DNA from: Ruminococcus sp.
Lineage (GTDB): Bacteria > Bacillota > Clostridia > Oscillospirales > Ruminococcaceae
DNA length: 64,000 nt
Assembly: GCA_017543595.1 (NCBI GenBank)
Contig: JAFYFU010000019.1
Span: 35,622-99,621 of the forward strand
Direction of reading: 5' to 3'
A model generated the notes under the pieces. It had not been told where the DNA came from. It did no database searches and was given only the letters and a program-made list of their open reading frames with translations. Positions 2,363 through 63,362 of the stretch are shown piece after piece; position 1 is the stretch's first letter, and each line of letters begins with the position of its first letter. Position numbers and translations under genes: made by a program.

Positions 2363-2371
2363 ATATTATTC

Positions 2372-2473
2372 AAAATGGGGGCAATTTTCGCCTTTTGAGG
2401 CTTGCCTGTTCACTCACTTCATTGCATTGCGTTCGTTCATACGGCAAGGGCGAAATTTCCCCCAAGCCCCCTT
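2372..2473. repeat. REP-like structured repeat copy, flanked by 30-bp direct repeats
   Basis: Nested inverted arms AATTTTCGCC/GGCGAAATTT and CTTGCC/GGCAAG around TTCACTC...CGTTC core; homologous to 14775-15090 and 43749-43848. Confidence 0.7.
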
Positions 2474-2626
2474 GAATTTTCGCAATAAAAAATAATATAA
2501 TTTAGACACATTTTGTTAATCATGTCAAAACTCACTAAAAATTATAAATATTTTGTGCATGATTATGAAATTTTTTTAAAAATTTTGGAATTTTAAAAAC
2601 TTTTTGTTAATATTAGTTCGCAATTA

Positions 2627-3643: not shown

Positions 3644-5155
3644 TTACATAAGTCCAAGCTGTGATTTTTTGGAAAGTATCCTGTAAACGCTGTCATTAAT
3701 TCTGCTTTCGGAAATTGTACCGTTTCTTACGGCGTTGCATACACCCTCAACGGCTGCCGAAAGGTCATAGGGCATAAGGACTATATCAACACCTGCCTGT
3801 ATTGCCATTACCGCAGAATCTCCCGAACCGTAAACATTCGCAATAGTATTCATCTGGTGGGAATCCGTAATTATAATTCCGCCGAATCCGAGTTCATATC
3901 TGAGGAGATTTGTAACGACTTCATAGGACAAATCCGAAGGGAGATTGTCGCCTACTCCCGAAATTATCTGATGACCTACCATTATACAGCTTACACCGCC
4001 GTTTATTCCGCTCTGAAACGGGATAAATTCTTCTGCACGGAGCTGGTCAAGGGTTCTGTCTATGGTAACAAAAGAATCCGTATGAGTATTTCCGCCCTCT
4101 GCGCCAAGTCCGGGGAAATGTTTAAGCGTAGCGCAGACACCTGTGCTTTGCAGACCCCAAACAACATTATTTATCATATCGGCAACTATCTGCGGATTAC
4201 TGCTGAAAATTCTTTCGCCGAGTTCGTTGTAGGGATTTATGTTCACGTCCGCAACAGGCGCAAAATCAAGGTTGAATCCGAGATTGCTGAGATATCCGCC
4301 TATTGTACTGCCTATGTTATAGGCTGAGGCTGTATCGTCCGTTGCCCCGTAATAAGCCATATTATAGAAAGAAGTCATTCCGAGGTTATCGGCAACACGG
4401 TTTACATAACCGCCCTCCTCATCAACGGAAATAAACATTCCCACACCGCAGGTATCTTTTGCATACTGCTGGGAATTGATTATCATGCTTGCGGTCTGTT
4501 CGGAGCTTTCTATATTATTTGCAAAATAAATAATACCGCCTACGGGGTAATTTTTTATTCCCTTTTTAGTGTCCTCGCCTGCGTAGTTATCGCTGTAACC
4601 TGCAAGCTGTTCGGGGGTTACTATAAACATCTGGCAGACTTTTTCTTCAAGCGTCATATAATCCATCAACTCCTGAACGGAGGCATTTTTCGGGGGAGTT
4701 CTTTTCTCGGAGGATTCCTGAGAGTTTTCATTGTTTTCGCTGTTGTTTTCCTCATCTGAAACGATTTCGCCGTTTTCGTTGGTAGTTTCTTCTTTTTTTT
4801 CTTTTTTCTTGCCTGCATCGGGATTTTCCACGACAAGACCGTTTTCGGGGGGGGCAAAAGTCGGGAGTTCCTCTGTATTCACGGCAGTTGTTTCGGTATG
4901 TTCCTGTTTCTTTTCCTGAGTTGCAGTCTGGACAGTTTCATTTCCTGCGCCTGAACGCTTTTTGGATTTACCGCTTACAGCCTTTGTAAAGGGCGGTTCT
5001 GTTAATTCTTCCGTACTTTCCTCCGTACCTGTCTGAATATCCGTTGAAACTATCTGCGGTTCAAAATCGGAACTTTCAGCAACATCAACTTTTCCGCAGC
5101 CGCTTAAAATCATACAGCAGCCAAGTGCGGCAGTGAGAATTTTTTTGATATTCAT
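3644..5155 (-). CDS. Lipoprotein, glycoside hydrolase family 3 (NagZ-like beta-N-acetylhexosaminidase)
   Basis: Lipobox LSGC; low-complexity E/T/N linker; ISVDEEGGYVNR, APVADV, KHFPGLG...H, IITDS motifs. Confidence 0.85.
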   Translation of the reverse strand: MNIKKILTAALGCCMILSGCGKVDVAESSDFEPQIVSTDIQTGTEESTEELTEPPFTKAVSGKSKKRSGAGNETVQTATQEKKQEHTETTAVNTEELPTFAPPENGLVVENPDAGKKKEKKEETTNENGEIVSDEENNSENNENSQESSEKRTPPKNASVQELMDYMTLEEKVCQMFIVTPEQLAGYSDNYAGEDTKKGIKNYPVGGIIYFANNIESSEQTASMIINSQQYAKDTCGVGMFISVDEEGGYVNRVADNLGMTSFYNMAYYGATDDTASAYNIGSTIGGYLSNLGFNLDFAPVADVNINPYNELGERIFSSNPQIVADMINNVVWGLQSTGVCATLKHFPGLGAEGGNTHTDSFVTIDRTLDQLRAEEFIPFQSGINGGVSCIMVGHQIISGVGDNLPSDLSYEVVTNLLRYELGFGGIIITDSHQMNTIANVYGSGDSAVMAIQAGVDIVLMPYDLSAAVEGVCNAVRNGTISESRINDSVYRILSKKSQLGLM

Positions 5156-9451: not shown

Positions 9452-12109
9452 ATGAATGAAAATAATAAAAAAGTAAGGGATTACCTCGAAAAAGAGGAAG
9501 TCCCCGAAAAATTAAGCCCCGAAAATATCGCAGAAATGCTCGGTGAAAACGCTCCGCAGAAGAAAAGAAAAAATATTTCCGCTGCGGGAAGAATTGCCGC
9601 ACTTGCGGCTGCCTGCGTAGTCATAGTCGGCGGAACTGTCCACTTTGCAGGTCAGAAAAATCTTTTCAATAAAAAACAGAATACACCCGATACTGTCATA
9701 AAAACCGACAATCAGGATTCGGGAAATTCAAAAGATGACGATTCCGAAACCACTACCAAAGCAAATACTGAAAACCCCACGGAGCAGGTTGTTGTAAAAT
9801 CTTATATGAACGGTGCGGAAAGCTACGAACAGATTTATACCATGTTTGAGAAATCCGCTAAAAGATATAACAAAAAATACAACTCAACACGTTCTTATGG
9901 TGCAAAATCAAACGGCTTTACCGATGATGTTATTGAATATGCCGTGGAAGAATCAGGTGATGATTCCGAGGGCGTTTATTATGACAACAGTGAAGTTTTA
10001 GCTCCAAAAACGAACTCCGATATGTACGATTCTCAGATGAATGGAGCAGTAGGCGGTATGGGCGGAGATATCAGCCCAAATGATGAATTTATAGCCGCTC
10101 CCAAAAATTCCGATGAAGAACCGACAGAAGAACCCACACAGGAAATTACTGAAACTCCCACAGAAGAACCGACAGAAGAACCTACTCAGGAAATTACTGA
10201 AACTCCCACGGAAGAACAGACAGAAGAACCCACGGAGGAAATTACAGAAACTCCCACGGAAGAACAAACAGAAGAACCTACCGAAGAATCTGCCGTAACT
10301 TCAACGGAAAGCACAAATCTTTCCACATCTGCAATAACTTCAACCGTAACTTCCGCAACTACTGCCGTAACTACCGAAACAGCAGAGGACGATTTTTCCG
10401 ATACCTACTCTCAGGAAGAAAATGTCCGTGAGGCTGATATTGTAAAAACTGACGGAAAAAATATTTACTATATCCGCAACAATTACAACTATAACGACGT
10501 AGACTGGACAAATGAATGTGTTCCGCAGATGAATATAGTTTCCGTTGACAGCGGAAAATTTGTGAATCCGCATACCGTTGACCTCACTCCCGATATGAGC
10601 AGATTCGGTGACGGTTACAGCAAAAGCGCAACAGTACAGGATATGTATATATACAACGATATGCTTATAGTTATCGGTTCGGAGTCCTCATATTATGATG
10701 TTGACTATTACTATACTGACGGCAACGGAGATGTTCTTGATGACAGTGCATGGTTCGACAGAAGTTCAGGCTGTTTTGTATCATTCTACACTCACGAGGC
10801 TGAACCGAAATTAATCGGCACTTATTATCAGGACGGATATTACAATGATGTGAGAATCTCCCCTGACGGCTATATGTATCTTGTTTCCAACCACTCCACA
10901 GCAACTTTTGAAAACGTCAGAAGTCAGGAAAACACAGGAAGATATATTCCCTCCTGCGGAACAGGTCAGGATATTGAGTTTATGCCCCCCGAAGATATTC
11001 TCCTCCCGAAAAGATTCAGCGATGAATCAGATACAATTGAATATACCGTGATAGGCGGTATAGACCTCACGGAAAAAGGCACTTTCAAACCCGTTGAAAC
11101 AAAAGCCCTCGCAGGTTACACAGGTCAGTTGTATATGTCCGAAAACAATATATATACTTCCGCAAACGATTACAGCAGCGATATCACAGAGACCGAAATA
11201 ACAAGAATCTCCGTAAATCAGGGAAATATTGACCCGCAGGCTTCCGGAAACGTCATGGGATATATAAAAGACCAGTTTTCAATGAGCGAATATGACGGAT
11301 ATCTCAGAGTTGCAGCCACAAGGCGTGGAACTTTAAAGGACGGCGGTATTATAAGCGATATGTTCGGCACTACCGAATATGAATACATTAACGACAACTG
11401 CGTTTACGTCCTCGATATGGATATGAATATTGTCGGCACGGCTGATGGTCTCGGCGAAAACGAAACTATAAAATCCGTAAATTTCAGCGGAAATATGGGA
11501 TATGTCGTAACTTACAGACAGACTGACCCCCTCTATGCAATAGATTTCAGCAACCCTGAAAGCCCTGTTGTCCTTGACGAATATAAAATCCTCGGTTACA
11601 GCAATTATATGCAGAGCTGGACGGAAGGCTTGCTTCTGGGATTCGGTGCGGACGCTGACGAGGACGGAATTGAAACAGGTGTAAAGCTTGTAATGTTTGA
11701 CAACTCCGACCCCGAAAACCTCAAAGAAGTCGGCTATTACAGCATTAACCACGATGATGACGGCTACATCTATTCAAACGCTATGTGGGACAGAAAATCA
11801 CTTTTGATTTCCCCTGAGAAAAATATAATCGGTGTCCCGATAAATGAATATCATTACTATGATTACTATTACGATGATGCCGAAGAATCCGAAGATGATT
11901 ATGCAAGTTACAGCAACGTATCAAAATATATGTTCTTCTCATACAATGACGGAAATTTTGAACTCATAGGCGAACTTAAATGCAACGGCGATTTGACCAC
12001 TCTCGAAAGAGCAATATACATAGGCAATTATGTCTATGCGCTCTCCGAAAATACTTTCGTTGCCGCAGATATGAAAACCCTCAAAGAAACAGACAGAATC
12101 AAATTCTGA
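9452..12109 (+). CDS. Putative anti-sigma factor with extracellular beta-propeller domain
   Basis: Short cytoplasmic N-terminus, one TM, acidic/Thr linker, QEENVREADIVKTDG, DQFSMSEYDGYLRVA, TYRQTDPLYAIDF..P motifs; follows ECF gene. Confidence 0.8.
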   Translation: MNENNKKVRDYLEKEEVPEKLSPENIAEMLGENAPQKKRKNISAAGRIAALAAACVVIVGGTVHFAGQKNLFNKKQNTPDTVIKTDNQDSGNSKDDDSETTTKANTENPTEQVVVKSYMNGAESYEQIYTMFEKSAKRYNKKYNSTRSYGAKSNGFTDDVIEYAVEESGDDSEGVYYDNSEVLAPKTNSDMYDSQMNGAVGGMGGDISPNDEFIAAPKNSDEEPTEEPTQEITETPTEEPTEEPTQEITETPTEEQTEEPTEEITETPTEEQTEEPTEESAVTSTESTNLSTSAITSTVTSATTAVTTETAEDDFSDTYSQEENVREADIVKTDGKNIYYIRNNYNYNDVDWTNECVPQMNIVSVDSGKFVNPHTVDLTPDMSRFGDGYSKSATVQDMYIYNDMLIVIGSESSYYDVDYYYTDGNGDVLDDSAWFDRSSGCFVSFYTHEAEPKLIGTYYQDGYYNDVRISPDGYMYLVSNHSTATFENVRSQENTGRYIPSCGTGQDIEFMPPEDILLPKRFSDESDTIEYTVIGGIDLTEKGTFKPVETKALAGYTGQLYMSENNIYTSANDYSSDITETEITRISVNQGNIDPQASGNVMGYIKDQFSMSEYDGYLRVAATRRGTLKDGGIISDMFGTTEYEYINDNCVYVLDMDMNIVGTADGLGENETIKSVNFSGNMGYVVTYRQTDPLYAIDFSNPESPVVLDEYKILGYSNYMQSWTEGLLLGFGADADEDGIETGVKLVMFDNSDPENLKEVGYYSINHDDDGYIYSNAMWDRKSLLISPEKNIIGVPINEYHYYDYYYDDAEESEDDYASYSNVSKYMFFSYNDGNFELIGELKCNGDLTTLERAIYIGNYVYALSENTFVAADMKTLKETDRIKF
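10113..10290 (+). repeat. Coding tandem repeat, 48-nt unit (TEE[PQ]TEEPT[QE]EITETP), ~3.5 copies
   Basis: Near-identical repeated DNA units in linker. Confidence 0.85.
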
Positions 12110-13393: not shown

Positions 13394-14764
13394 TCAAACT
13401 TTGGGGAGTTTTGCTGTTGATTTCTGTATTTCCTCATCTGTGGGGATATAGTCGCTCATTTTTCCGTCATTGTAAGCCGCATAAGCGTACATATCGAAAT
13501 AGCCCGTACCCGTAAGACCAAAGAGAATAGTTTTCTCCTCGCCTGTTTCCTTGCATTTGAGAGCCTCATCAATTGCCGCACGGATTGCATGACTGCTTTC
13601 GGGTGCAGGGAGTATTCCCTCAACTCTTGCAAACTGCTGTGCAGCTTCAAATACTGCTGTCTGCTCAACCGAACGAGCCTCCATGAGTTTCTGGTCATAG
13701 AGTTCCGAGAGAATCGCACTCATTCCGTGATATCTCAGACCACCTGCGTGGTTGGGCGAGGGCATGAATCCGCTGCCGAGAGTATACATTTTCTGTAAGG
13801 GGCAAACTTTTCCCGTGTCGCAGAAGTCATATGCATAGACACCTCTGGTAAGGCTGGGGCATGATGCAGGTTCAACGGCAACTATCTTATAATAAGCCTC
13901 TCCCCTGAGTTTTTCGCCCATAAAGGGAGCAATAAGTCCGCCGAGATTTGAACCGCCGCCTGCACAGCCTATGATAATATCCGGCTTTATGCCGTACTTG
14001 TCCATAGCGGTTTTTGTTTCAAGACCGATTACTGTCTGGTGCAGAAGTACCTGAGAGAGAACGCTTCCGAGAACATAGCGGTAGCCCTCTTTTGAAGTTG
14101 CAGCCTCGACAGCCTCGGAAATTGCACAGCCGAGACTTCCGTTTGTATCGGGAAATTCCGCAAGAATTTTTCTGCCGACTTCCGTTGTGTTTGAAGGCGA
14201 AGGAGTTACGGACGCACCGTAGGTACGCATTACTTCACGCCTGAAAGGTTTCTGCTCATAGGATACCTTTACCATGTAAACATTACAGTCAAGGTTAAAA
14301 TACGAACAAGCCATAGAAAGTGCAGTACCCCACTGACCTGCTCCCGTTTCGGTTGTAACGCCTTTAAGACCCTGTTTCTTTGCATAGTAAGCCTGAGCGA
14401 TTGCGGAATTTAACTTATGGCTTCCGCTTGTGTTGTTTCCCTCGAATTTGTAATATATTTTAGCGGGAGTGCCGAGAGCTTTTTCAAGGCAGTAAGCTCT
14501 TACAAGCGGGGAAGGTCTGTACATCTTGTAAAAGCTTAAAATCTCATCGGGAATATCTATATAGGGTGTTGTTTCGTCAAGTTCCTGCTTAACGAGTTCA
14601 TCGCAGAAAACGTGACCGAGTTCCTCAGCCGTTACGGGCTTTAAGGTTGCAGGATTGAGGAGGGGTGCAGGTTTTTTCTTCATATCTGCCCTTACATTGT
14701 ACCACTGTTTAGGGAGTTCCTCCTCCGAGAGATAAATTTTATAGGGTATTTTTTCGTTTGACAT
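13394..14764 (-). CDS. trpB2: TrpB-like PLP-dependent enzyme (tryptophan synthase beta type 2)
   Basis: SGSHKLNSA PLP lysine, TETGAGQWG, GGGSNLGG, PAPESSHAI; no trpA adjacent. Confidence 0.92.
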   Translation of the reverse strand: MSNEKIPYKIYLSEEELPKQWYNVRADMKKKPAPLLNPATLKPVTAEELGHVFCDELVKQELDETTPYIDIPDEILSFYKMYRPSPLVRAYCLEKALGTPAKIYYKFEGNNTSGSHKLNSAIAQAYYAKKQGLKGVTTETGAGQWGTALSMACSYFNLDCNVYMVKVSYEQKPFRREVMRTYGASVTPSPSNTTEVGRKILAEFPDTNGSLGCAISEAVEAATSKEGYRYVLGSVLSQVLLHQTVIGLETKTAMDKYGIKPDIIIGCAGGGSNLGGLIAPFMGEKLRGEAYYKIVAVEPASCPSLTRGVYAYDFCDTGKVCPLQKMYTLGSGFMPSPNHAGGLRYHGMSAILSELYDQKLMEARSVEQTAVFEAAQQFARVEGILPAPESSHAIRAAIDEALKCKETGEEKTILFGLTGTGYFDMYAYAAYNDGKMSDYIPTDEEIQKSTAKLPKV

Positions 14765-14774
14765 AATAGTCCTC

Positions 14775-15090
14775 CTTATTTAAAATCGTCAGATTTTGCC
14801 TTTTTAGGCTTGACATTTCATTCACTCCGCTGTTGCTCCGTTCATTCCCATGTCAAGGGCAAAATCTTCCTCTTATTTAAAATCGTCAGATTTTGCCTTT
14901 TTAGGCTTGACATTTCATTCACTCCGCTGTCGCTCCGTTCATTCCCATGTCATGGCGCAAATCTTCCTCTTATTTAAAATCGTCAAATTGCGTCATTTAG
15001 GCTTGACACATTCACTCAAAAATCAAAGATTTTTTCGTTCATTTGTGTCAAGGACGCAATTTTCCTCTTATTTAAAATCGTCAGATTTGC
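14775..15090. repeat. Tandem array of three 97-98-nt REP-like structured units plus a fourth boundary motif
   Basis: CTTATTTAAAATCGTCA starts at 14775, 14872, 14969, 15067; each unit has nested inverted arms. Confidence 0.9.
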
Positions 15091-15098
15091 TAACTTAA

Positions 15099-16016
15099 TT
15101 AACGGTGAGAACCGCCGCCTCCGTGACCGCCGCTGTGCGAATGACCGCCGCCTCCGCTTCTTGTTCCGCTGTCTGACTGTATTTTTGTTTTTGTCGTATG
15201 AGTACGCAGGAAAGTATCCGTCTGCACATTGAAATTTGATTTCTGCTGTGAAACATATACGTCAGGGCTTGCAGATGCCTTGAATTTATAATGGCTTTTT
15301 ATGCAGGATTTTGTTATCAGTGAGGTTATCAGACCTATGATAAAGGCTATAAAAGTGATAAGCATAACGGTTGAGGGGGCATTTCCCTTTGTTATGTAAA
15401 GCTGACCGCCCTTATAGTAAAATACTTTTCCCGATGAACGGTCTTTGTAATGCTTTGAAAAGCTTTGGCTTTCGTCTTTCTGATTCAGGAGAAAATCGCA
15501 GAAAGTTGTAATTGCCTCATGAATCTGTCCTGCTTCTATTGCCTGACCTGACGGGGGAAGCACTCCGTTCATGGTTGTTTCAAAAGTCCTGTCATCTATT
15601 TTTTTCTGATACCATAGTACAGCCTTTCCGCTTGTGGAAATATAATCATAGGCAGGAGATTTTCCCGATATGTCTATATAGTAGAAAACTCCGTCAGTAT
15701 CCTCTCCGAAAGTTTCGTCATAGGAATCATCTGCAAATATTTCCGTTTCGTAGTCGTAATATCCCGAATATGAACTGTCGGGAAGAAATACAGCTATATT
15801 CATTTCAAGCAATTCAGCATATGAATCAATCATTTCTTCAATTTCGCTGTATTCGTCCTCGTCAAAAAGTCCGTATTCGTCATAAAGGCCCGATAATTCC
15901 GTGCTTCCGTCCCAGCCCTTTGCATAATTTTCAGCCGCATTTGTTTTCAGAGCATCAAATGGTACGATAAAAAGCAGAATCATTACCGTAACTGCGGAAA
16001 ATATAAATTTTTTCAT
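15099..16016 (-). CDS. TPM domain-containing membrane protein
   Basis: Signal peptide, LYDEYGLF, DG.FYYID....YDYISTSGKA, C-terminal TM and Gly/His-rich tail; start ATG 16016 overlaps upstream stop. Confidence 0.8.
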   Translation of the reverse strand: MKKFIFSAVTVMILLFIVPFDALKTNAAENYAKGWDGSTELSGLYDEYGLFDEDEYSEIEEMIDSYAELLEMNIAVFLPDSSYSGYYDYETEIFADDSYDETFGEDTDGVFYYIDISGKSPAYDYISTSGKAVLWYQKKIDDRTFETTMNGVLPPSGQAIEAGQIHEAITTFCDFLLNQKDESQSFSKHYKDRSSGKVFYYKGGQLYITKGNAPSTVMLITFIAFIIGLITSLITKSCIKSHYKFKASASPDVYVSQQKSNFNVQTDTFLRTHTTKTKIQSDSGTRSGGGGHSHSGGHGGGGSHR

Positions 16017-26653: not shown

Positions 26654-27106
26654 ATGGCTGAAAAAAATTACATAAAATATGAACTCTACAAAACACACAA
26701 AACAAAGCTTTCAAAGGCTATGAAAAATGAATTTTACTTTGAGGCTGTTCTTATTGAATACTCAATAATCGAGGACAGAATTGATTCACTTTTCCGCTCG
26801 GTCGGCTGCAAACTTGATAATAAGCTTTATAAAAACCTGAACAAAATGAAATCAAATCCAATATTCACAAACGATAAATTTATCCGTGAAAGAATAACAA
26901 TTGAACTTGTAGAAAAGCTCCATGAATGGAGAATCGCAAGAAATGAAGCTGTCCATGCACTTTTCAAAGAACAAAATATCGACACTGACTACAAAAAACT
27001 GGCTGAGGACGGCTATGAACTGCAAAGAATACTTGACAATAAAGTCAGCTCAATAACAAGGCATTTTGACAGAATCAAAGAAAAAGAAGAAAACAATAAA
27101 CAATAA
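26654..27106 (+). CDS. Hypothetical protein with HEPN-like Rx4H motif
   Basis: All-helical; N-terminal EAVLIEYSIIEDR and RNEAVH motif; start ATG 26654 after AAGGAG. Confidence 0.6.
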   Translation: MAEKNYIKYELYKTHKTKLSKAMKNEFYFEAVLIEYSIIEDRIDSLFRSVGCKLDNKLYKNLNKMKSNPIFTNDKFIRERITIELVEKLHEWRIARNEAVHALFKEQNIDTDYKKLAEDGYELQRILDNKVSSITRHFDRIKEKEENNKQ

Positions 27107-27133
27107 AAAAATCCCCCTTTTCAGGGGGATTTG
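27105..27133. terminator. Bidirectional terminator, sequence shared with 46703-46734
   Basis: AAAAAATCCCCCTTTTCAGGGGG hairpin. Confidence 0.8.
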
Positions 27134-32702: not shown

Positions 32703-35339
32703 TTATTCAATTCCGTCAAACATATAGATAAATTTAACGCTTCCGTCCATATCCTCGGATTTTCCGCTGAAAGTTCCGTAATCCTGAGACACTTCCCTGA
32801 GTGCCTTGAATCTGTCGGCAATATCGGGGAGTTTTTCGTCAGCGACTTCGGATATTTTTGATATACCCTCCTTGTTGAATTTAATCATTCCGTCATTGAG
32901 TTCCTTTGAACCGTCTTTGAGTTTTCCAACTCCGTCAAGGAGTGCGGGCATATTGTCTTTGAGAGTAACTATACCCGTATCGAGTTCGGCTGCACCGCCT
33001 GTAAGAGTTCCTGCACCCTCACTGAGTTTAAGCAGAGAATCATAGAGAGTTTCAGCACCGCCCGAAAGTTTGCCGCTGCCCGAAAGTATCTGTGAAATAC
33101 CGCCGTCAAGTTCTCCTGCGCCTGAATTAAGCTGTACAAGACCTTCGCTCAAAGTTTCCGCACCTGATGAAAGCTGACCCGTACCGTCTTTAAGGTCAAC
33201 CGCACCTGCCTCCAATTTTGCAAGACCTGCGTTAAGCTGTGCATTTCCGCCCGAAAGCTGTTTTATGCCGTTGATAAGTCTGTCAAGACCGTCCGTAAGA
33301 GTTCCGCTTCCCTTTGCAAATTCGGATATACCGCTGTCAAGGGCTTTTGTGCCGTCAGAAAGATTTCCTGCTCCCTGTGAGAGAAGTTCTGCGGAGTCAG
33401 AAATTGTCTGTGTACCTGCGGAGAGTTGTTTTCCGCCGTTGTCGAGAGTTTCAAGACCCTGACTTAAAGCCTGTGAACCGCCCTGAACGGTTTCAAGACC
33501 TGCTGAAAGCTGACCTGCACCGCCTTGTAACTGCTGTACACCTGCGGAGAGTTTTTCTGCGCCGTCTTTAAGCTGACCGCCGTCTTTCATTGATGCGGAT
33601 ATCTGTTTCTGTGATTCTATGGTTTTCTGCAAAGTTCCTATTGAAACGGCAAGTTCCTGAGAGGGATTCTGTTCATAGAGAGCCTGCAAAGCTGTAAGAG
33701 CCTGTTCATTTGCGGAAATTGTAGCGTCAAGGCTTGCGCCTGCGTAAGCTATACCGCCTGCCAGATTGTCTGCGCCTGCGGAAAGGGATTCCGAACCGCT
33801 TGTAAGGCTGTCTGCACCGTCTTTAATCTGGGATATTCCTGCGGAAAGGCTGTCTGCGCCGTCTTTTGCGGAAGATATTCCCTGTGAGAGTTTCTGTGCC
33901 GACTGGTTGAGAGTTTCCGTGCCTGCGGAGAAAGTATTCATATTTTCTGAGAGTTTTTCCGCACCGTCCTTAACCTGTGAACTGCCTGCGGAAATTTTTT
34001 CAACACCGTCTTTTAATGTATCACTACCGCCCGAAAACTGCGATAATCCTTCGTCAAGCTGTGCGAATCCGTCAACGAGAGCGTCAGAGCCTTTTTTAGC
34101 GTCTGAAATTCCGTTTGAAAGTGCGTTTGCACCGTTGTTTACTTTAACTGCACCGTCCGAGAGAGTTTTTGCGCCGTTGTTTGCGGAATTAACACCCTCT
34201 TTGAGTTTAGCCGAGCCGTCTTTTACCGTCTGTGCGCCGTCTTTGAGAGTTACTGTTGAATCGGAGAGAGTTTTTGCGCCGTCTGCAATCTGTACAGCAC
34301 CGTTATTAAGTTCATCTGCACCGTTTTTAAGTTTTGATGAACCGTCAGCAAGTTTATTAACACCGTCCGATAAATCTTTTGACTTTTTAGAGAGTTCGTC
34401 TAAACCGTTGTAAAGCTGTGCAGTACCGTCAGCAAGCTTGTTTGCACCGTCACTTAATTCTTTTAATTTGTCTTCGAGTTCTCCGAAATCGAAATTATCA
34501 TCAATATCAAGGTCTGAGAATATCTCATTTGATACGACCGTAACGGAATTTGTCATTTCAAAATTATCAACGTCTGCGGAAATTTCAAAATAATCGGGGA
34601 GAGATACGTCAAATTCGCTTATTTCGTCAAGTCCGAGGCTTTCGCTGAGTTTCGGGAAACCTATTCCGACAGCTATAACTCTTTCACCGTCAGAAATTAT
34701 TTTTCCGTTTGTTGCCTCAACGTTGAGGAATTTTCCCGTATCGAGAACAACTGCGCTTGCAGTCATGAACGGAACGTACATAGTTCTTTTTTCACCGTTT
34801 ATTGTCTTGGTTACCTGTGCCTTGTTCGTGTAGTCCCAGCGGATAGTTACATGACCACTTTTTCCCTTTAAATCTTCGGGGGAAATTTCATTTCCGTCAA
34901 GGTAATAAGTAATATTTACATCAACGGGGAGTTCCTTGTCTGTTGTGCCTTTGTAGTATATATCATTTCCGTCAGCGTTCCATTCAAGGTTTTCGCCGTC
35001 CTGAGAGAAATCCTCATCGCCCTTTACGTTGATTATATCCGTGAGTGAAGAAATATCCGAAAGTTCTCCCGATGCGGGGGCATTTTTGAGCCAGTCGCTT
35101 ACGACAACATTCTTAACGGAAGAATCGTTATTGCAGAGAACATAGACTGTTTCGTCTTTTTCGGCATTTTCTCCGTTTGACTGTCTTTCGGAATCTTCTG
35201 TATTTTCAGCCGTTTCCTGTATATTTTCCGTTGTGTTTTCTTCGGATTCGTCATTATTTGCGTATGTTATTACACCTGTTGTGACTGCGGAGACAGCAAC
35301 TGCTGTAACGGCTGCGATTATTTTCTTATAATTTTTCAT
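32703..35339 (-). CDS. Secreted long coiled-coil protein with X-X-X-L-X-X-G heptad repeats (YhgE/Pip-like MMPL partner)
   Basis: Signal peptide; KDETVYV..VSDWLKN N-domain; ~500 aa of A..L..G heptads; conserved TFSGK...GSVKFIY C-terminus. Confidence 0.8.
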   Translation of the reverse strand: MKNYKKIIAAVTAVAVSAVTTGVITYANNDESEENTTENIQETAENTEDSERQSNGENAEKDETVYVLCNNDSSVKNVVVSDWLKNAPASGELSDISSLTDIINVKGDEDFSQDGENLEWNADGNDIYYKGTTDKELPVDVNITYYLDGNEISPEDLKGKSGHVTIRWDYTNKAQVTKTINGEKRTMYVPFMTASAVVLDTGKFLNVEATNGKIISDGERVIAVGIGFPKLSESLGLDEISEFDVSLPDYFEISADVDNFEMTNSVTVVSNEIFSDLDIDDNFDFGELEDKLKELSDGANKLADGTAQLYNGLDELSKKSKDLSDGVNKLADGSSKLKNGADELNNGAVQIADGAKTLSDSTVTLKDGAQTVKDGSAKLKEGVNSANNGAKTLSDGAVKVNNGANALSNGISDAKKGSDALVDGFAQLDEGLSQFSGGSDTLKDGVEKISAGSSQVKDGAEKLSENMNTFSAGTETLNQSAQKLSQGISSAKDGADSLSAGISQIKDGADSLTSGSESLSAGADNLAGGIAYAGASLDATISANEQALTALQALYEQNPSQELAVSIGTLQKTIESQKQISASMKDGGQLKDGAEKLSAGVQQLQGGAGQLSAGLETVQGGSQALSQGLETLDNGGKQLSAGTQTISDSAELLSQGAGNLSDGTKALDSGISEFAKGSGTLTDGLDRLINGIKQLSGGNAQLNAGLAKLEAGAVDLKDGTGQLSSGAETLSEGLVQLNSGAGELDGGISQILSGSGKLSGGAETLYDSLLKLSEGAGTLTGGAAELDTGIVTLKDNMPALLDGVGKLKDGSKELNDGMIKFNKEGISKISEVADEKLPDIADRFKALREVSQDYGTFSGKSEDMDGSVKFIYMFDGIE

Positions 35340-42940: not shown

Positions 42941-43741
42941 TTATTCTTCTTCGGGTATTCCTGAGATTGTGAAATTAACTTCAACTTCTTTCCAAGTTGA
43001 GAAATCCGATTTATTTACAATCATTGGAGAATAAGCGGCGGCGGCTTCTGTCGGTGTGCCGTCAACAACAAGTGCGCCCTCTGTCGATACTGCATCTTCG
43101 GGGAGAGAATCAACCCAGCCGTTATATATATTTGACCTGAGTTCTTTTCCGTCATCGGAAGATGTATAATTCTTTGCGGTCATTTCAATTTCCTGACCGT
43201 CAATCTTGATTGAATCAATGGTTATAACCGCATCGGGGAACAGAGTTTTTCCGTCCTTAATCATAACAGCCGCAAACATAAGACCTGACGGAACTGCACC
43301 CGAATCCGTTGCATCTCCCGTGGTATCATAGCGGAAACCGTTCGTATCGGTTGTTACGCTTACGGTATAGCTTCCGTTGCCCTCTATATGGGGAACTCCT
43401 GCGTTATATGTGAGCATAGTGTCAGCTGCGCCCCAATACTGAATCCAGCCCTGTTCTTCATTTATGGCAAGATAAGCGTCACCTGATTCAGCGACAACGG
43501 GGTCTTCAAATTCAACATCATCTGCAACGGCAATCGGAACAGCTTCTTCCTCGGTTGTATCCTCGGTGACTTCTTCGCTTGATTCTTCGGTAGCTTCCTC
43601 AGTTGCCTCTGCGCTTGATTCCTCTGCCTTTGATGACTCGGCAGTTGATGAAGAACTGTTTTCCGTGGCTGTTCCTCCGCAGGATACAAAAGCCGAACAC
43701 ACAACAGCCGATAAAATAACACATGAAATTAACTTTCTCAT
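42941..43741 (-). CDS. Lipoprotein with uncharacterised Trp-containing beta-rich domain
   Basis: Lipobox FVSC; S/E/A/T linker; WIQYWG, GNGSYTV, RSNIYNGWV. Confidence 0.75.
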   Translation of the reverse strand: MRKLISCVILSAVVCSAFVSCGGTATENSSSSTAESSKAEESSAEATEEATEESSEEVTEDTTEEEAVPIAVADDVEFEDPVVAESGDAYLAINEEQGWIQYWGAADTMLTYNAGVPHIEGNGSYTVSVTTDTNGFRYDTTGDATDSGAVPSGLMFAAVMIKDGKTLFPDAVITIDSIKIDGQEIEMTAKNYTSSDDGKELRSNIYNGWVDSLPEDAVSTEGALVVDGTPTEAAAAYSPMIVNKSDFSTWKEVEVNFTISGIPEEE

Positions 43742-43748
43742 AAGAACA

Positions 43749-43848
43749 CCTCATTTAAAATCGTCAAATTTGCGCTTTTAGGGCTTGTGCTTTCGTTCAC
43801 TCCGCTTTGCTGCGTTCACTTTCAGCACAAGGCGCAAATTTTCCTCCC
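43749..43848. repeat. REP-like structured repeat copy forming the lipoprotein 5' UTR
   Basis: AAATTTGCGC/GCGCAAATTT and CTTGTGC/GCACAAG arms; minus-strand promoter TTGACA-17-TACAAT at 43865-43893. Confidence 0.8.
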
Positions 43849-45371: not shown

Positions 45372-45458
45372 TGGTGCGAGTGACGGGACTTGAACCCACA
45401 CGTCGTTTCCAACACTAGCACCTCAAGCTAGCCTGTCTGCCTATTCCAGCACACTCGC
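45372..45458 (-). tRNA. tRNA-Leu(GAG)
   Basis: GCGAGTG acceptor stem, anticodon arm CTAGC-TTGAGGT-GCTAG, long variable arm, GGTTCAAGTCC T-loop, encoded CCA. Confidence 0.95.
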
Positions 45459-46389: not shown

Positions 46390-46704
46390 ATGGGATATTA
46401 CCAAAGATTAAAAGACCTCAAAGAAGATGCAGACCTGACACAAAAAGATGTAGCCGAAATAATCGGCGTTTCCGTAAATCACTATGGAAAATATGAACGT
46501 GGGGAAACTGACATTCCTTTTGAAAAAGTAATATCACTTGCCGAATATTACGGTGTATCACTTGATTATATCGCAGGACGAACAAATTCCAAAAACCCAA
46601 ATGAAAATTTAACTATTTCAGATATATATAATAAACTCAGCGAAAGAGACAAGGGAAAACTTGAACTTTTCGCAGAAATGCTTATGGATAAAAGATTAAC
46701 ATAA
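46390..46704 (+). CDS. XRE-family HTH regulator
   Basis: RLKDLKEDADLTQKDVA...YGKYERGETDIP...LAEYYGVSLDYI. Confidence 0.92.
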   Translation: MGYYQRLKDLKEDADLTQKDVAEIIGVSVNHYGKYERGETDIPFEKVISLAEYYGVSLDYIAGRTNSKNPNENLTISDIYNKLSERDKGKLELFAEMLMDKRLT

Positions 46705-46734
46705 AAAATCCCCCTTTTCAGGGGGTATTTTTTT
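46703..46734. terminator. Bidirectional terminator, sequence shared with 27105-27133
   Basis: AAAAAATCCCCCTTTTCAGGGGG hairpin. Confidence 0.8.
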
Positions 46735-60121: not shown

Positions 60122-62491
60122 TTATTTTCCGTATATACGGGCAGCTATGTCAACTGTCTGTTTAGCGTCCTTTGCATAGAAATCTGCGTGTATCTGTTCG
60201 GCATAGGAGGCAGTAAGAACCGCTCCGCCGACAACCGTTTTACATTCGGGATACTGTTCATTCAGCAGAGTTATGGTTTCCGCCATAGCTCCGAGAGTAG
60301 TTGTCATGAGGGCGGAAAGTCCCACAAGGCTTACCTTTTCTTTTATGGCGGTATCAACGATAAGCTGAGGGTCTACATCTTTTCCGAGGTCTATGACGGT
60401 GAATCCGTAGCTGTCGAGGAGGACTTTGACGATATTTTTTCCGATATCGTGGATATCGCCCTTTACAGTTGCAAGGACTACTTTTCCCTTTGACACGCTT
60501 TCGGAATTATTAAGTGAAAGTTTTGATTTTATTATTTCAAAGCAAGCCTGCGCCGCACCTGCCGTAAGTATAAGCTGCGGCAGGAAAATTTTTCCCTTTT
60601 CAAATTTTTCCCCTGCGCTGTCAAGTGCGGGAATGAGATAATTATTGATTATCTCCATAGGGTCTTTTTCCTTCATGAGTTCTTCTGCGGCTTTTGTGGC
60701 ATCATTTTTAAGACCGTTTTCAACGGCATACATAAGGTCGGGAGTGCCTTTGTCAGCCGTTACGGGCTTTGGTGCGCTGTCCGCATTTGCATATACCGAT
60801 ATAAATTCCTCGGAATTTTTGTCTATTCCCGTGAGAAGCCTGTAAGCCCTGACTGCGCCCATTATTGAATCTATATTCGGATTTATAATCGGAAGTGTCA
60901 GACCACTGTGAAGTGCCATTGTAAGGAATGTTCTTGTAATTGTTTCCCTGTTTGGAAGTCCGAAAGATATATTCGACACACCGAGAACGGTATTCAAGCC
61001 GAGTTCGGTTCTTACACGGTGAAGGGCGTTTATAGTTTCCATAACGCCGTCCTGCTCCGCTGATGCCGTAAGAGTAAGGCAGTCTATAAAAACATCTTCT
61101 TTCGGGATACCGTATTCAAGGGCTTTGTTTAAGATTCTTTCGGCAATTTTAAATCTCCCGTCTGCGGTTTTGGGTATGCCTTTCTTGTCAAGGGTAAGAC
61201 CGACAACAGATGCGCCGTATTTCTTTACAAGAGGGAGAATTTTTTCAAGGGATTCTTCCTCACCGTTTACGGAGTTTACAATGGGCTTTCCGTTGTATAC
61301 TCTCAGTCCTGCATCAAGGACTTCGGGAATTGTCGAATCAAGCTGTAAAGGTGTGTCACATATGCTCTGAATAGCCTTTACAGCCGTAACCATCATTTCT
61401 TTTTCATTTATGTCGGGAAGTCCCACGTTTACATCAAGGATTTCCGCACCTGCGTGTATCTGTTCAACAGCCTGACCGAGTATATAATCTATATCATGGT
61501 CAATGAGAGCCTGTTTGAAACGCTTTTTACCCGTAGGGTTAATTCTTTCGCCTATAACTCTCGGCTGGTTTATCTCAACACAGTTTACGGCTGAACAGGC
61601 TACACTTCGTTTTTTCGGTTTCTGCGGACAGTATTCGAGATTTTCAAATTTATTTGAAAGAGCCGCTATATGTGAAGGGGTAGTTCCGCAGCAGCCTCCG
61701 AACATCTTTACACCGAGCTTTACAAGCTTTTCATATTCATTCGCAAAATCTTCGGGAGACATATTGTATTCGTTGGTTGCGGGGTCGGGAAGTCCTGCAT
61801 TTGGCTTTGCTATGACGGGCAGAGATGTAAGTGAGCATATTTTCTCAAACACGGGATAGAGCTGTTCAGGACCGAGAGAACAGTTTACACCTATGGCATC
61901 AACTCCGAGACCTTCAAGAACTGCTACCATACATTCGGGCGATACTCCCGTGAATGTACGCAGATTTTCCTCAAAAGTCATGGTTACAAGTATCGGCTTG
62001 TCGGAATTTTCCTTTGCCGCAAGGACAGCCGCCTTGACTTCATACAGGTCTGTCATTGTTTCGATTACAATAACGTCTGCATCTTCACCTGCAAGGACAA
62101 CTTCCCTGTATATATCATAGGCTTCCTCAAATTTCAGAGAACCCGACGGTTCAAGGAGCTGTCCGATAGGACCTATGTCAAGGGCGACAAGAGCATCACC
62201 GAAAACTCCGTCCCTTGCATTTTTCACGGCAGCTTTTACGATTTCTTCGACTGTGTGTCCGCTTTCGGCGAGTTTAAGCCTGTTTGCGCCGAAAGTATTT
62301 GTATATACTATATCCGAACCTACTTCCGAATATATTGTATGTATATTCATTACGGACCACGGGTCTTCAATGTTTATAAGTTCGGGAATATGCCCCTCAT
62401 AATCCGTTGTTGATTGGAGCATAGTTCCCATTGCCCCGTCAAGGAAAACAAATTCCTTTGAACGGAGCAGTCTTTCAAGCTTTTGATTCAT
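60122..62491 (-). CDS. metH: Cobalamin-dependent methionine synthase (Hcy-binding + pterin-binding + B12-binding; no reactivation domain)
   Basis: GVNCS and GGCCGTT Zn ligands; IGERINPTGK; DIHDIGKNIV and SALMTT B12 motif. Confidence 0.92.
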   Translation of the reverse strand: MNQKLERLLRSKEFVFLDGAMGTMLQSTTDYEGHIPELINIEDPWSVMNIHTIYSEVGSDIVYTNTFGANRLKLAESGHTVEEIVKAAVKNARDGVFGDALVALDIGPIGQLLEPSGSLKFEEAYDIYREVVLAGEDADVIVIETMTDLYEVKAAVLAAKENSDKPILVTMTFEENLRTFTGVSPECMVAVLEGLGVDAIGVNCSLGPEQLYPVFEKICSLTSLPVIAKPNAGLPDPATNEYNMSPEDFANEYEKLVKLGVKMFGGCCGTTPSHIAALSNKFENLEYCPQKPKKRSVACSAVNCVEINQPRVIGERINPTGKKRFKQALIDHDIDYILGQAVEQIHAGAEILDVNVGLPDINEKEMMVTAVKAIQSICDTPLQLDSTIPEVLDAGLRVYNGKPIVNSVNGEEESLEKILPLVKKYGASVVGLTLDKKGIPKTADGRFKIAERILNKALEYGIPKEDVFIDCLTLTASAEQDGVMETINALHRVRTELGLNTVLGVSNISFGLPNRETITRTFLTMALHSGLTLPIINPNIDSIMGAVRAYRLLTGIDKNSEEFISVYANADSAPKPVTADKGTPDLMYAVENGLKNDATKAAEELMKEKDPMEIINNYLIPALDSAGEKFEKGKIFLPQLILTAGAAQACFEIIKSKLSLNNSESVSKGKVVLATVKGDIHDIGKNIVKVLLDSYGFTVIDLGKDVDPQLIVDTAIKEKVSLVGLSALMTTTLGAMAETITLLNEQYPECKTVVGGAVLTASYAEQIHADFYAKDAKQTVDIAARIYGK

Positions 62492-62501
62492 TTTTCAAGC
62501 C

Positions 62502-63362
62502 TCATTTTTTGTACGGGTGATATTTTATATTTTCAAAGACAAATGCAAGAGCCGCTATATGTGCGGGAGTAGTTCCGCAAGCACCGCCGAACATTTTTAC
62601 ACCGAGTTCCGTGAGTTCCGCACAGTGAAGCGCAAATTCTTCGGGTTCTACATCATATTCGCCTGTTTCGGGGTCAGGGATTCCCGCATTCGGCTTTGCT
62701 ATCACGGGCAGAGAAGTATTTGAAGATATTTTTTCAATTACGGGGCGAAGCTGTTTTGGAGAGAGAACACCGTCTGCGCCTATTGCATCAACTCCGAGGC
62801 TTTCAAGTGCCGTAACCATTTCTTCGGGGGATACACCGTCAGCGGTGAGTAAATTTTCACCGAATGACATAGTTACGATTATAGGCTTGCCTGAATTTTC
62901 CTTTACGGCACGGACAGCGGCTTTTGTTTCTTCAAGGCTTGTCATGCCCTCTATGGCAATTAAATCGGCATCTTTTCCTGCGATGACAATTTCCTTGAAT
63001 ATATCATAATATTCCTCATCGCTGAGTTTCTTTCCGACAGAACCGATATCAAGGGCGATGAGCGCATCGCCGAAAACGCCTTCCCTTGCATTTTCAACAG
63101 CAGACTTTACTATTTCCTCAACTGTATATCCGCTGTCTGCGAGATTCAATCTGTTTGCGCCGAAAGTATTTGTATAAACTATATCAGCACCGACTTCCGA
63201 ATATATCGTATGCATATTCATAACAGACCACGGGTCAATCATGTTCACAAGTTCGGGGATATTTCCGTCATAATCGGCTGTTACTTGAAGCATAGTTCCC
63301 ATTGCGCCGTCAAGAAATACAAATTCCTTTGAGTTAATCAGATTTTCAAGTTTTTCATTCAT
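62502..63362 (-). CDS. Stand-alone homocysteine S-methyltransferase-domain paralog lacking two Zn cysteines
   Basis: Closely resembles N-terminus of neighbouring metH; GADG replaces GVNC, GGACG replaces GGCCG; start ATG 63362 probable. Confidence 0.85.
   Translation of the reverse strand: MNEKLENLINSKEFVFLDGAMGTMLQVTADYDGNIPELVNMIDPWSVMNMHTIYSEVGADIVYTNTFGANRLNLADSGYTVEEIVKSAVENAREGVFGDALIALDIGSVGKKLSDEEYYDIFKEIVIAGKDADLIAIEGMTSLEETKAAVRAVKENSGKPIIVTMSFGENLLTADGVSPEEMVTALESLGVDAIGADGVLSPKQLRPVIEKISSNTSLPVIAKPNAGIPDPETGEYDVEPEEFALHCAELTELGVKMFGGACGTTPAHIAALAFVFENIKYHPYKK

Follow-up and report, generated by a model that had tools for sequence, protein, structure and literature searches.

Interspersed hairpin repeats such as REP, BOX, ERIC and Correia elements are known mostly from Proteobacteria and streptococci, and both their spread and their function are debated. 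The present analysis concerns a family of structured repeat units found in a stretch of 64,000 nucleotides from Ruminococcus sp. (assembly GCA_017543595.1, contig JAFYFU010000019.1, positions 35,622 to 99,621 of the forward strand; hereafter the window), where an initial annotation, made from the letters alone, had described five copies of what could be an undescribed REP/BIME-like or cis-regulatory RNA family. That proposal is supported, even if several of the features that define REPs fail, and of its two branches the mobile repeat is favoured over the cis-regulator because one site is found empty in a sister lineage and filled with a 30-bp duplication in the window, because units are present or absent at the level of strains, and because they are absent at orthologous genes. 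With moderate confidence, the units are taken to represent mobile DNA repeats, small, non-coding and able to expand, that form a family specific to one lineage, the rumen Ruminococcus of the flavefaciens group; literature searches found no earlier description of the family. It comes from abundant fibre-degrading rumen Firmicutes and has three unusual properties, namely its placement before ribosome-binding sites, a Shine-Dalgarno (SD)-like head of its own and long target duplications; natural pairs of filled and empty sites are available, which makes it a tractable system for the movement of hairpin repeats without an obvious transposase and for effects on mRNA decay in an organism employing RNase J/Y.

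The CGTC-tagged REP superfamily has no known dedicated transposase according to its description (Di Nocera et al. 2013, PMC3733652), where REPs appear as sequences of 20-40 nt with stems of 8-9 bp and loops of 4-5 nt, mostly arranged as inverted head-to-head dimers and lying mainly 3' of genes. The Ruminococcus units are similar to REP/BIME elements in that they are abundant outside genes, form imperfect palindromes whose stems are heterogeneous, and are transcribed together with the neighbouring genes. REPs bear an unpaired tetranucleotide tag (GTAG or CGTC) at one end of the palindrome, and a possible counterpart in the present units is a plus-strand CGTC (variant CCTC) located 1 nt from a stem that starts with A or T, in the manner of the CGTC tag, its CCTC variant and the rule of AT in the first and second stem positions given in PMC3733652. 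This tag (GACG on the transcribed strand) stands 1 nt from the outer helix in most of 38 distinct aligned units, CCTC and CGCA being its variants, and is replaced by GGGGG in a subfamily named G5; the resemblance could be coincidental. Unlike a REP, the unit is about 100 nt long and its hairpin of 75-80 nt comprises three helices, a 7-8-nt bulge and internal loops; moreover, the units follow one another head-to-tail and lie immediately 5' of start codons (at most 16 nt upstream at 19 of 24 sites).

Another point of comparison is the BOX element of Streptococcus pneumoniae (Croucher et al. 2011, PMC3049150), likewise an interspersed repeat of a Firmicute, for which the accessible portion of that paper reports a tandemly variable module (boxB), a strong predicted RNA structure, strain-to-strain length variation, co-transcription and, as a feature of BOX, effects on neighbouring genes. 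The two are nevertheless unrelated in sequence, BOX has fixed boxA and boxC ends and it is not tied to the junction between SD and start codon, PMC3049150 reporting it as over-represented between convergent genes. Correia (NEMIS) and ERIC elements, in the summary given there, are hairpin repeats of transcribed regions that give rise to RNase III or RNase E processing sites and alter transcript stability. The likeness lies in the insertion of hairpin-forming repeats into transcribed regions; unlike the present units, whose arms vary and one of whose duplications measures 30 bp, those elements resemble MITEs (transposable elements of the miniature inverted-repeat kind), with conserved terminal inverted repeats. 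Correia elements are flanked by a short TA duplication, and Gram-positive 5' mRNA stabilisers, a further group to be considered, block 5'-to-3' decay. The analogy with the latter is functional only and consists in an SD-like polypurine sequence and/or a stable leader structure not used for initiation; unlike a repeated mobile family, the stabilisers, such as STAB-SD of cryIIIA (Agaisse & Lereclus 1996) and the polypurine stabiliser of Hue et al. (1995), both listed in PMC3997798, are single gene-specific sequences.

All five copies claimed for the window (three in tandem, one near 43.8 kb and one near 2.4 kb) are present, and the sequence contains the outer stems assigned to them (GATTTTGCC/GGCAAAATC, AAATTGCGTC/GACGCAATTT, AAATTTGCGC/GCGCAAATTT and AATTTTCGCC/GGCGAAATTT) as well as the inner stems (CTTGACAT, CTTGACAC, CTTGTGC and CTTGCC, each with its complement). 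When the 64 kb is searched, with filters off, by a covariance model that rests on 22 members of the family, five units come out (E 6e-30 to 3e-14) and no sixth, nothing else in the window scoring better than E 0.6. From 5' to 3' of the strand that is transcribed (for units A to D the minus one), a unit begins with an SD-like head AAGAGGAA, continues as a hairpin of about 75-80 nt and closes with a tail UGACGAUUUUAAAUAA. The outer helix P1 (9-10 bp) is A/U-rich at its base and G/C-rich at its top; the inner helix P2 (6-8 bp) invariably has CUUG at its start and CAAG at its end, and a bulge of 7-8 nt, GCCUAAAA, lies on the 3' side between P2 and P1. Above P2 follow a purine-rich internal loop, the irregular helix P3, a GNA/GNA loop and an apical loop of 3-4 nt; in P3, Watson-Crick pairs alternate with possible tandem G.A pairs in a module, 5'-GAAC/5'-GUGA, present in one to three copies. 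Two loop subtypes (i and ii) are distinguished, and in the G5 subfamily the head is replaced by GGGGGCUUGGGGG and UGACG by CCCCC, giving an extra outer helix. The features of the window are the following.

2334-2363: left copy of the target duplication of unit E, TTTTCGCAATAAAAAATAATATAATTTAGA, 30 bp, covering the last codons and the stop of the response-regulator gene
2364-2476, minus strand: unit E, G5 subfamily, with the GGGGGCUUGGGGG head and CCCCC before the tail; 88 bits
2477-2506: right copy of the target duplication of unit E, 30 bp, identical to the left copy
13394-14764, minus strand: gene of a TrpB-like pyridoxal phosphate enzyme (PF00291), directly downstream of the A-C array
14765-14791, minus strand: 3' tail of unit A, UGACGAUUUUAAAUAA, abutting the SD GGAGGA (14770-14775); the ATG of the TrpB-like gene is at 14764-14762
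14792-14866, minus strand: hairpin of unit A, P1 GATTTTGCC/GGCAAAATC, P2 CTTGACAT/ATGTCAAG, GA-rich inner helix
14867-14888, minus strand: linker B-A, made of the tail of B and the SD-like head AAGAGGAA of A
14889-14963, minus strand: hairpin of unit B, apparently degenerate or chimeric; 64.8 bits (partial model match)
14964-14984, minus strand: linker C-B, made of a tail and an SD-like head
14985-15062, minus strand: hairpin of unit C, arms AAATTGCGTC/GACGCAATTT and CTTGACAC/GTGTCAAG; 98.4 bits, fold z -6.4
15063-15098, minus strand: 5'-most linker of the array, with a 5' remnant of an outer 3' arm, GCAAATC; the fourth TTTAAAATCGTCA is at 15071
42941-43741, minus strand: gene of a 266-aa lipoprotein-like protein, no Pfam domain, directly downstream of unit D
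43742-43765, minus strand: tail of unit D, UGACGAUUUUAAAU, and SD GAGGUG of the 266-aa lipoprotein-like gene (ATG 43741-43739)
43766-43841, minus strand: hairpin of unit D, AAATTTGCGC/GCGCAAATTT and CTTGTGC/GCACAAG; 116.3 bits
43842-43893, minus strand: SD-like head of unit D, GGGAGGAA, and a near-consensus promoter

For the array, the output of Tandem Repeats Finder is a period of 97 nt and 2.5 copies (14770-15008); as read from the sequence, there are three full units and a fourth partial linker at 15063-15098, immediately after the upstream gene's stop codon (15099-15101). The array contains the linker TTTAAAATCGTCA four times, one more than it has hairpins (n+1 for n), with a spacing of 97-98 nt between copies, and unit D contains it once. 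Unit A is the top-scoring unit of the window (123.7 bits) and its RNA, on the minus strand, folds with -27.4 kcal/mol (z -4.4), while in unit C the apical hairpin is replaced by AAAAATC/GATTTTT. That the arms differ and the pairing is kept holds for the copies of the window with the exception of unit B, whose outer arms and one inner pair are mismatched: on the plus strand an A-type 5' arm, GATTTTGCC, faces a 3' arm of the kind seen in D-type units, GGCGCAAATC; in addition, one P2 pair is broken and the fold z is only -2.0. Unit B thus looks like a chimera or a decayed copy, as a recombinant between unlike units of the array might; not every copy, then, keeps the fold. Comparison with Rfam 15 gave no family for the units at or near the gathering score, either in the window or in five element-rich loci; the permissive matches (C/D-box snoRNA and lncRNA models, E>1) were rejected as noise, the C/D-box one reflecting the tandem-GA motif. 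Nor is a transposase seen in the window, in line with the initial annotation: the map of its open reading frames (ORFs) shows no RAYT (Y1/HUH) gene, and ten unannotated ORFs gave no transposase domain.

Unit E is a 113-bp insert located directly after the stop codon of a response-regulator gene and antisense to the plus-strand genes on its two sides. The spacer between the response-regulator and DegV genes measures 345 nt in the window, and among the other contigs in which the response-regulator or the DegV protein is identical, those with both genes have one of 344-345 nt; in the sister lineage represented by L130 (L-numbers denote loci from genomes and metagenomes gathered for comparison), with a DegV 87% identical and flanks about 94% identical, it measures 202 nt and contains a single TTTTCGCAATAAAAAATAATATAATTTA(A)A copy, followed directly by CACATTTTGTT. 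The 143 nt by which the locus is longer in the window correspond to the 113-bp unit and a second copy of a 30-bp segment and, since the two 30-bp copies are identical in the window, E is to be regarded as an insertion whose 30-bp target duplication takes in the response-regulator stop codon. The unit is also absent from the more distant L131 (DegV 80% identical); a search with the exact response-regulator and DegV proteins showed site E to be filled in all 14 other spanning contigs, and the NCBI assembly GCA_017441715.1, with an identical response-regulator protein, has the same filled site.

Units come and go at other loci as well. The L058 unit is bracketed by a diverged direct repeat of about 27 bp that includes the end of the upstream ORF, and L089 and L091, with flanks 95-99% identical, show four unit-level indels in 1.5 kb: ahead of a start codon a G5 unit is there in one contig and missing in the other, a single unit stands against two identical ones, a small gene is preceded by one unit against three, and a deletion has taken the hairpin only, so that the 3' arm and tail remain. 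Two full units are found in L087 (1431-1800), and collapsed solo heads and tails (CAGGGGGTTCTCCCATTTTAAAATA, CAAATTTGACGATTTCAA) in L092 (9330-9400). The arrays are head-to-tail, with a spacing of 97-110 nt, and of mixed subtype (units A and C differ in the window, and in L050 the subtypes alternate), so that they are not simple tandem duplications. In L087, it may be added, an upstream ORF reads into the element, by which its C-terminus is replaced.

The possibility that the element belongs to the trpB-like gene downstream of the array was rejected, because among 20 homologue loci a unit is present only in the window's own contig; indeed, none occurs upstream of the trpB-like orthologues from other lineages (19 loci). 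The closest relatives of the TrpB-like protein (88-92% identity) are found in genomes of the Ruminococcus flavefaciens group and in rumen and gut metagenomes, and the window itself lies within a 116-kb ENA metagenome contig. In a sister Ruminococcus (L097, 2868-3103) the trpB-like gene, located downstream of an rnf operon, has a T-box leader (RF00230, 110.5 bits) and other orthologues have a plain promoter, the species of the window having the repeat array in this leader and no T-box.

As to the distribution of the family, a degenerate genome pattern recovered genuine members in two rumen metagenome-assembled genomes (MAGs), Ruminococcus sp. RGIG4914 (at least 7 loci) and UBA4383 (at least 3 loci); applied to representative genomes the pattern proved too loose, giving mostly chance matches among those listed, and a tighter pattern led to nine metagenome contigs. 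A profile search then counts 51 units (E<=1e-5) in 33 arrays over the window, the two Ruminococcus MAGs and the nine contigs, and none in 100 other loci (681 kb, including other Ruminococcus species); two matches from a scan of viral contigs were discarded as chance, both being without stems. In one DNA metagenome the word depth is 100-400 over the repeat versus 9-10 on its flanks, so that conserved words are present in tens of copies in that community. Public assemblies break at 14765-15128, where contigs end within units and word depth rises 10- to 40-fold; the assembled contigs across the repeat are split into pieces of 31-63 nt, and one unit is missing from some RNA contigs (joints 14902-14999 and 14988-15059), as would fit either strain variation in unit number or assembly collapse. 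The repeat is of some practical concern, as it fragments metagenome assemblies and misleads gene callers (the L087 ORF); it could, on the other hand, serve as a strain marker.

The placement of the copies in untranslated regions (UTRs), put forward in the initial annotation, is borne out, the copies lying in leaders and intercistronic spacers. At 19 of the 24 distinct sites that could be assessed, a long ORF on the same strand has its start codon 3-16 nt beyond the end of the last unit, the SD of the gene lying in between, and the orientation is sense at 22 of the 24; the three sense sites located elsewhere are a 3' UTR before a terminator-like hairpin, a position 105 nt before ilvC and one 277 nt before an ORF, while the two antisense sites (window E and L089_7303, which equals L091_2609) lie directly behind a stop codon. 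At many sites the unit is intercistronic and separated by 6-83 nt from the end of the upstream ORF. Given that the search pattern was devoid of flanks, the selection of loci by pattern should not bias these counts. The downstream genes, judged from their first residues, look diverse and include hisD, hisC, hisA, argH, purM, purB, gltX and ecfA, a trpB-like gene, and genes for lipoproteins, a small DUF951-like protein and a phage-type protein. In L093, units (187-237, 1580-1681 and 3942-4038) precede three consecutive genes resembling a his operon (hisD-, hisC- and hisA-like, by eye); the first of these units is 5'-truncated and matches model positions 58-108.

Transcription through the units can be followed at unit D, where a predicted promoter (TTGACA-17-TACAAT, 43893-43865, 11 of 12 matches, with TG before the second hexamer) would start the transcript about 18 nt before the hairpin. 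RNA contigs from three rumen metatranscriptomes extend from the coding sequence through the start codon into the D hairpin, up to 43812, and past 43866, upstream of the predicted promoter, all four runs have an RNA depth of 0; since these assembled contigs join the coding sequence to the hairpin, unit D is part of an mRNA leader. Repeat k-mers are also present in RNA contigs at 14765-15128.

The conservation of pairing extends to the whole family. In a MAFFT alignment of 22 units, 89% of the cells are paired (34-41% in slid controls) and double changes occur at 16 of 24 pairs; in an alignment of 41 units fitted to the model, and hence biased towards the structure by construction, the figure is 94.3% (21-43% in slid controls), with changes on both sides at 19 of 24 pairs. 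None of 500 shuffles matches this pairing in either alignment. The strong covariation on which the initial annotation had relied, and for which it had asked a larger alignment, thus persists at 22 and at 41 units, and extends to the P3 pairs flanking the tandem G.A step (AU to GC, 14 versus 20 units; UA to CG, 22 versus 12). GAACG and AGUGA are invariant in 38 units, and the unpaired positions of the hairpin carry more information than the paired ones (1.38 versus 1.20 bits). Unusually for an RNA family, G-U pairs occupy only 9 of 881 paired cells and A-C mismatches 16, and many of the changes are GC-to-CG and AU-to-UA flips; the changes being almost all from Watson-Crick to Watson-Crick, covariation alone is no proof of selection on RNA and, given that such pairing is available on both strands, a constraint at the DNA level or arm-to-arm correction fits at least as well. 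Of the earlier claim that covariation points to selection on an RNA or single-stranded DNA fold, therefore, the covariation stands, and by itself it does not prove selection on the RNA. The asymmetry between G-U and A-C cells was considered as an indicator of the functional strand and discarded, both being rare; the fold on the transcribed strand is 5-7 kcal/mol more stable.

When the units are held against the marks of described classes of elements, none of these applies in full. Instead of the conserved terminal inverted repeats of a MITE there are outer arms that vary (GATTTTGCC, AAATTGCGTC, AAATTTGCGC, AAGCCGCCC and others) and covary, and instead of a short, fixed target duplication there are 30 bp at E, about 27 bp at L058 and none that is clean at L089/L091; presence/absence polymorphism at orthologous sites, as in MITEs, is observed (L130 versus E; L089 versus L091). 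Elements derived from IS200/IS605 have distinct left and right subterminal hairpins and insert 3' of a short target without duplication; here, each unit has one hairpin and the E insertion has its 30-bp duplication. The covariation expected of a leader RNA or riboswitch is found, a conserved association with orthologous genes across species is not. Lacking several features that define REPs, MITEs and IS200/IS605 derivatives and, as a cis-regulator, the conservation across orthologues, the family is classed here as a new one among the structured interspersed repeats, outside any named family.

A mobile repeat of this kind may survive in front of genes by virtue of its tail, which would leave an unstructured A/U-rich stretch and an SD ahead of the start codon, so that the downstream gene would stay translatable. 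In the opposite orientation, the hairpin would be followed by the U-rich UUCCUCUUAUUU and would probably terminate transcription (a terminator scan returned one terminator-like site on the opposite strand, at unit C); an antisense insertion in an operon would then be polar, and this would explain why antisense units are seen only behind stop codons. Once in a leader, a hairpin beside a decoy SD would most likely act as a barrier to 5'-to-3' and 3'-to-5' exonucleases, or as a processing site; it may thus stabilise the leader or the intercistronic segment, with RNase J-type and 3' exonucleases blocked, in likeness to the Gram-positive 5' stabilisers and to the effects on transcripts that PMC3049150 summarises for REP, ERIC and Correia elements. 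The kept pairing and the conserved unpaired bases may reflect the needs of a propagation machinery that handles a folded single-stranded DNA or RNA intermediate, and arm-to-arm correction at the DNA level may contribute to the former; the conserved asymmetric features would most simply be what that machinery recognises. An effector-sensing function is not indicated.

Some observations weigh against a mobile repeat, or against the role suggested here for its hairpin. At the SD-proximal sites of L089/L091, the linkers flanking the new unit are closer to the family consensus than to the empty site, and junctions so non-uniform are at odds with simple cut-and-paste and a target duplication of fixed length; copy-choice (template switching), recombination between linkers or some enzyme are possible sources. 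Among the ORFs of the window and in the loci examined, neither a transposase nor a reverse transcriptase nor a nuclease was found as a partner. The RNA evidence is made of assembled contigs and not of end-mapped reads, and the stabiliser role is a putative one. The invariant unpaired GA-rich positions and the stability of the transcribed strand fit a protein-bound RNA equally and, by the look of the downstream genes, many of them biosynthetic (his, arg, pur, ilv, trpB-like), the family could hint at a regulon.

These last points lead to a cis-regulatory RNA controlled in trans, be it a protein-binding leader or a riboswitch-like one, whose GA-rich core would bind a co-regulator of a biosynthetic or housekeeping regulon and whose tandem units would provide cooperativity. 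Such a regulator, which we hold to be unlikely, would account for covariation together with invariant unpaired positions, for the strictly sense placement next to the SD that 19 of 24 sites show, for the greater stability of the transcribed-strand fold (5-7 kcal/mol) and for downstream genes such as hisD, hisC, hisA, argH, purM, purB, ilvC, the trpB-like gene and gltX; lipoproteins and a phage-like protein (from first residues) are, however, downstream as well, the trpB-like orthologues of related species use a T-box or a plain promoter in place of the unit, and whole units are present or absent between near-identical strains. The antisense insertion with its 30-bp target duplication behind a stop codon, the near absence of G-U pairs and the lack of an Rfam match also speak against it.

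The scarcity of G-U pairs would, instead, be expected of a selfish palindrome acting at the DNA level only, whose complementarity would come from quasipalindrome correction (intra-strand template switch) or from the needs of a DNA enzyme and whose position before start codons would result from target preference and survivorship. In this sense can be read the Watson-Crick-only covariation with its transversion flips, the rapid gain, loss and collapse of hairpins into solo linkers, the chimeric appearance of unit B, and an orthologous unit in L012 and L092 that differs, by eye, by two substitutions, each breaking a pair. What renders a DNA-only palindrome improbable is that no unit has its bulge or its asymmetric GA-rich loops 'corrected' to a perfect palindrome, that these parts exceed the variable stem columns in conservation, and that 22 of 24 units are in sense orientation; the units being part of mRNAs, moreover, an effect at the RNA level is hard to avoid.

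Returning to the mobile repeat, a bolder version of it would see in the unit a leader cassette able to propagate itself, its target being the junction just 5' of the SD and its route passing through a folded single-stranded DNA or RNA intermediate, a mode of insertion undescribed in bacteria; we regard this as a long shot, and it is with the same reserve that the variable long target duplications (up to 30 bp) and the head-to-tail stacking are named as its marks. Were it true, translation-initiation regions and mRNA stability would be rewritten genome-wide.

Mobility mediated by RNA in the manner of a short interspersed nuclear element (SINE), with the hairpin RNA reverse-transcribed at nicked targets to give variable long duplications and 5'-truncated copies, appears very improbable: the long duplications of unequal length (30 bp and about 27 bp), the A/U-rich 3' tail, the remnants retaining only 3' arm and tail with which arrays start and the 5'-truncated unit of L093 (187-237) agree with it, but the remnants are equally explained by deletion of the hairpin, a reverse transcriptase is not seen near any unit, and such a mechanism is not known to us for non-intron RNAs in bacteria. 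Other readings can be dismissed briefly: the TTGACA inside P2 has, in the sequence, no matching -10 at the right spacing; an intrinsic terminator on the transcribed strand would have its U-run 5 nt off the stem, and none was returned there by the terminator scan; a small ORF is contradicted by start codons that are not conserved and by stems that covary at the nucleotide level; for an attC/integron, no GTTRRRY core is seen by eye and the flanking genes are those of housekeeping operons; the GGA motifs of a CsrA sponge are not conserved in subtype ii; and the CCUC on which an anti-SD pairing by the bulge would depend is present in only some units.

The remaining observations concern other parts of the window. 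A tRNA-Leu(GAG) (45372-45458, minus strand) is its sole Rfam or ARAGORN match. Tandem repeats of 48 and 96 nt at 10115-10309 encode a Thr/Glu/Pro-rich linker, TEEPTQEITETP, in an 885-aa protein with a Beta_propel domain (9452-12109), and a 21-nt periodicity with 13 copies of a degenerate 50-nt repeat (32970-34450) runs through an 878-aa minus-strand ORF (32703-35339), which probably encodes a repetitive surface protein. The 23-nt sequence AAAAAATCCCCCTTTTCAGGGGG, a terminator-like hairpin beside an A/T run, occurs in identical form at two gene ends 19.6 kb apart (27106-27128 and 46703-46725). Finally, two adjacent paralogous genes lie at 61619-63329, with 73-82% DNA identity over about 770 nt and a spacing of 871-889; from their N-termini (SKEFVFLDGAMGTMLQ), the products looked like homocysteine S-methyltransferase or methionine-synthase domains.

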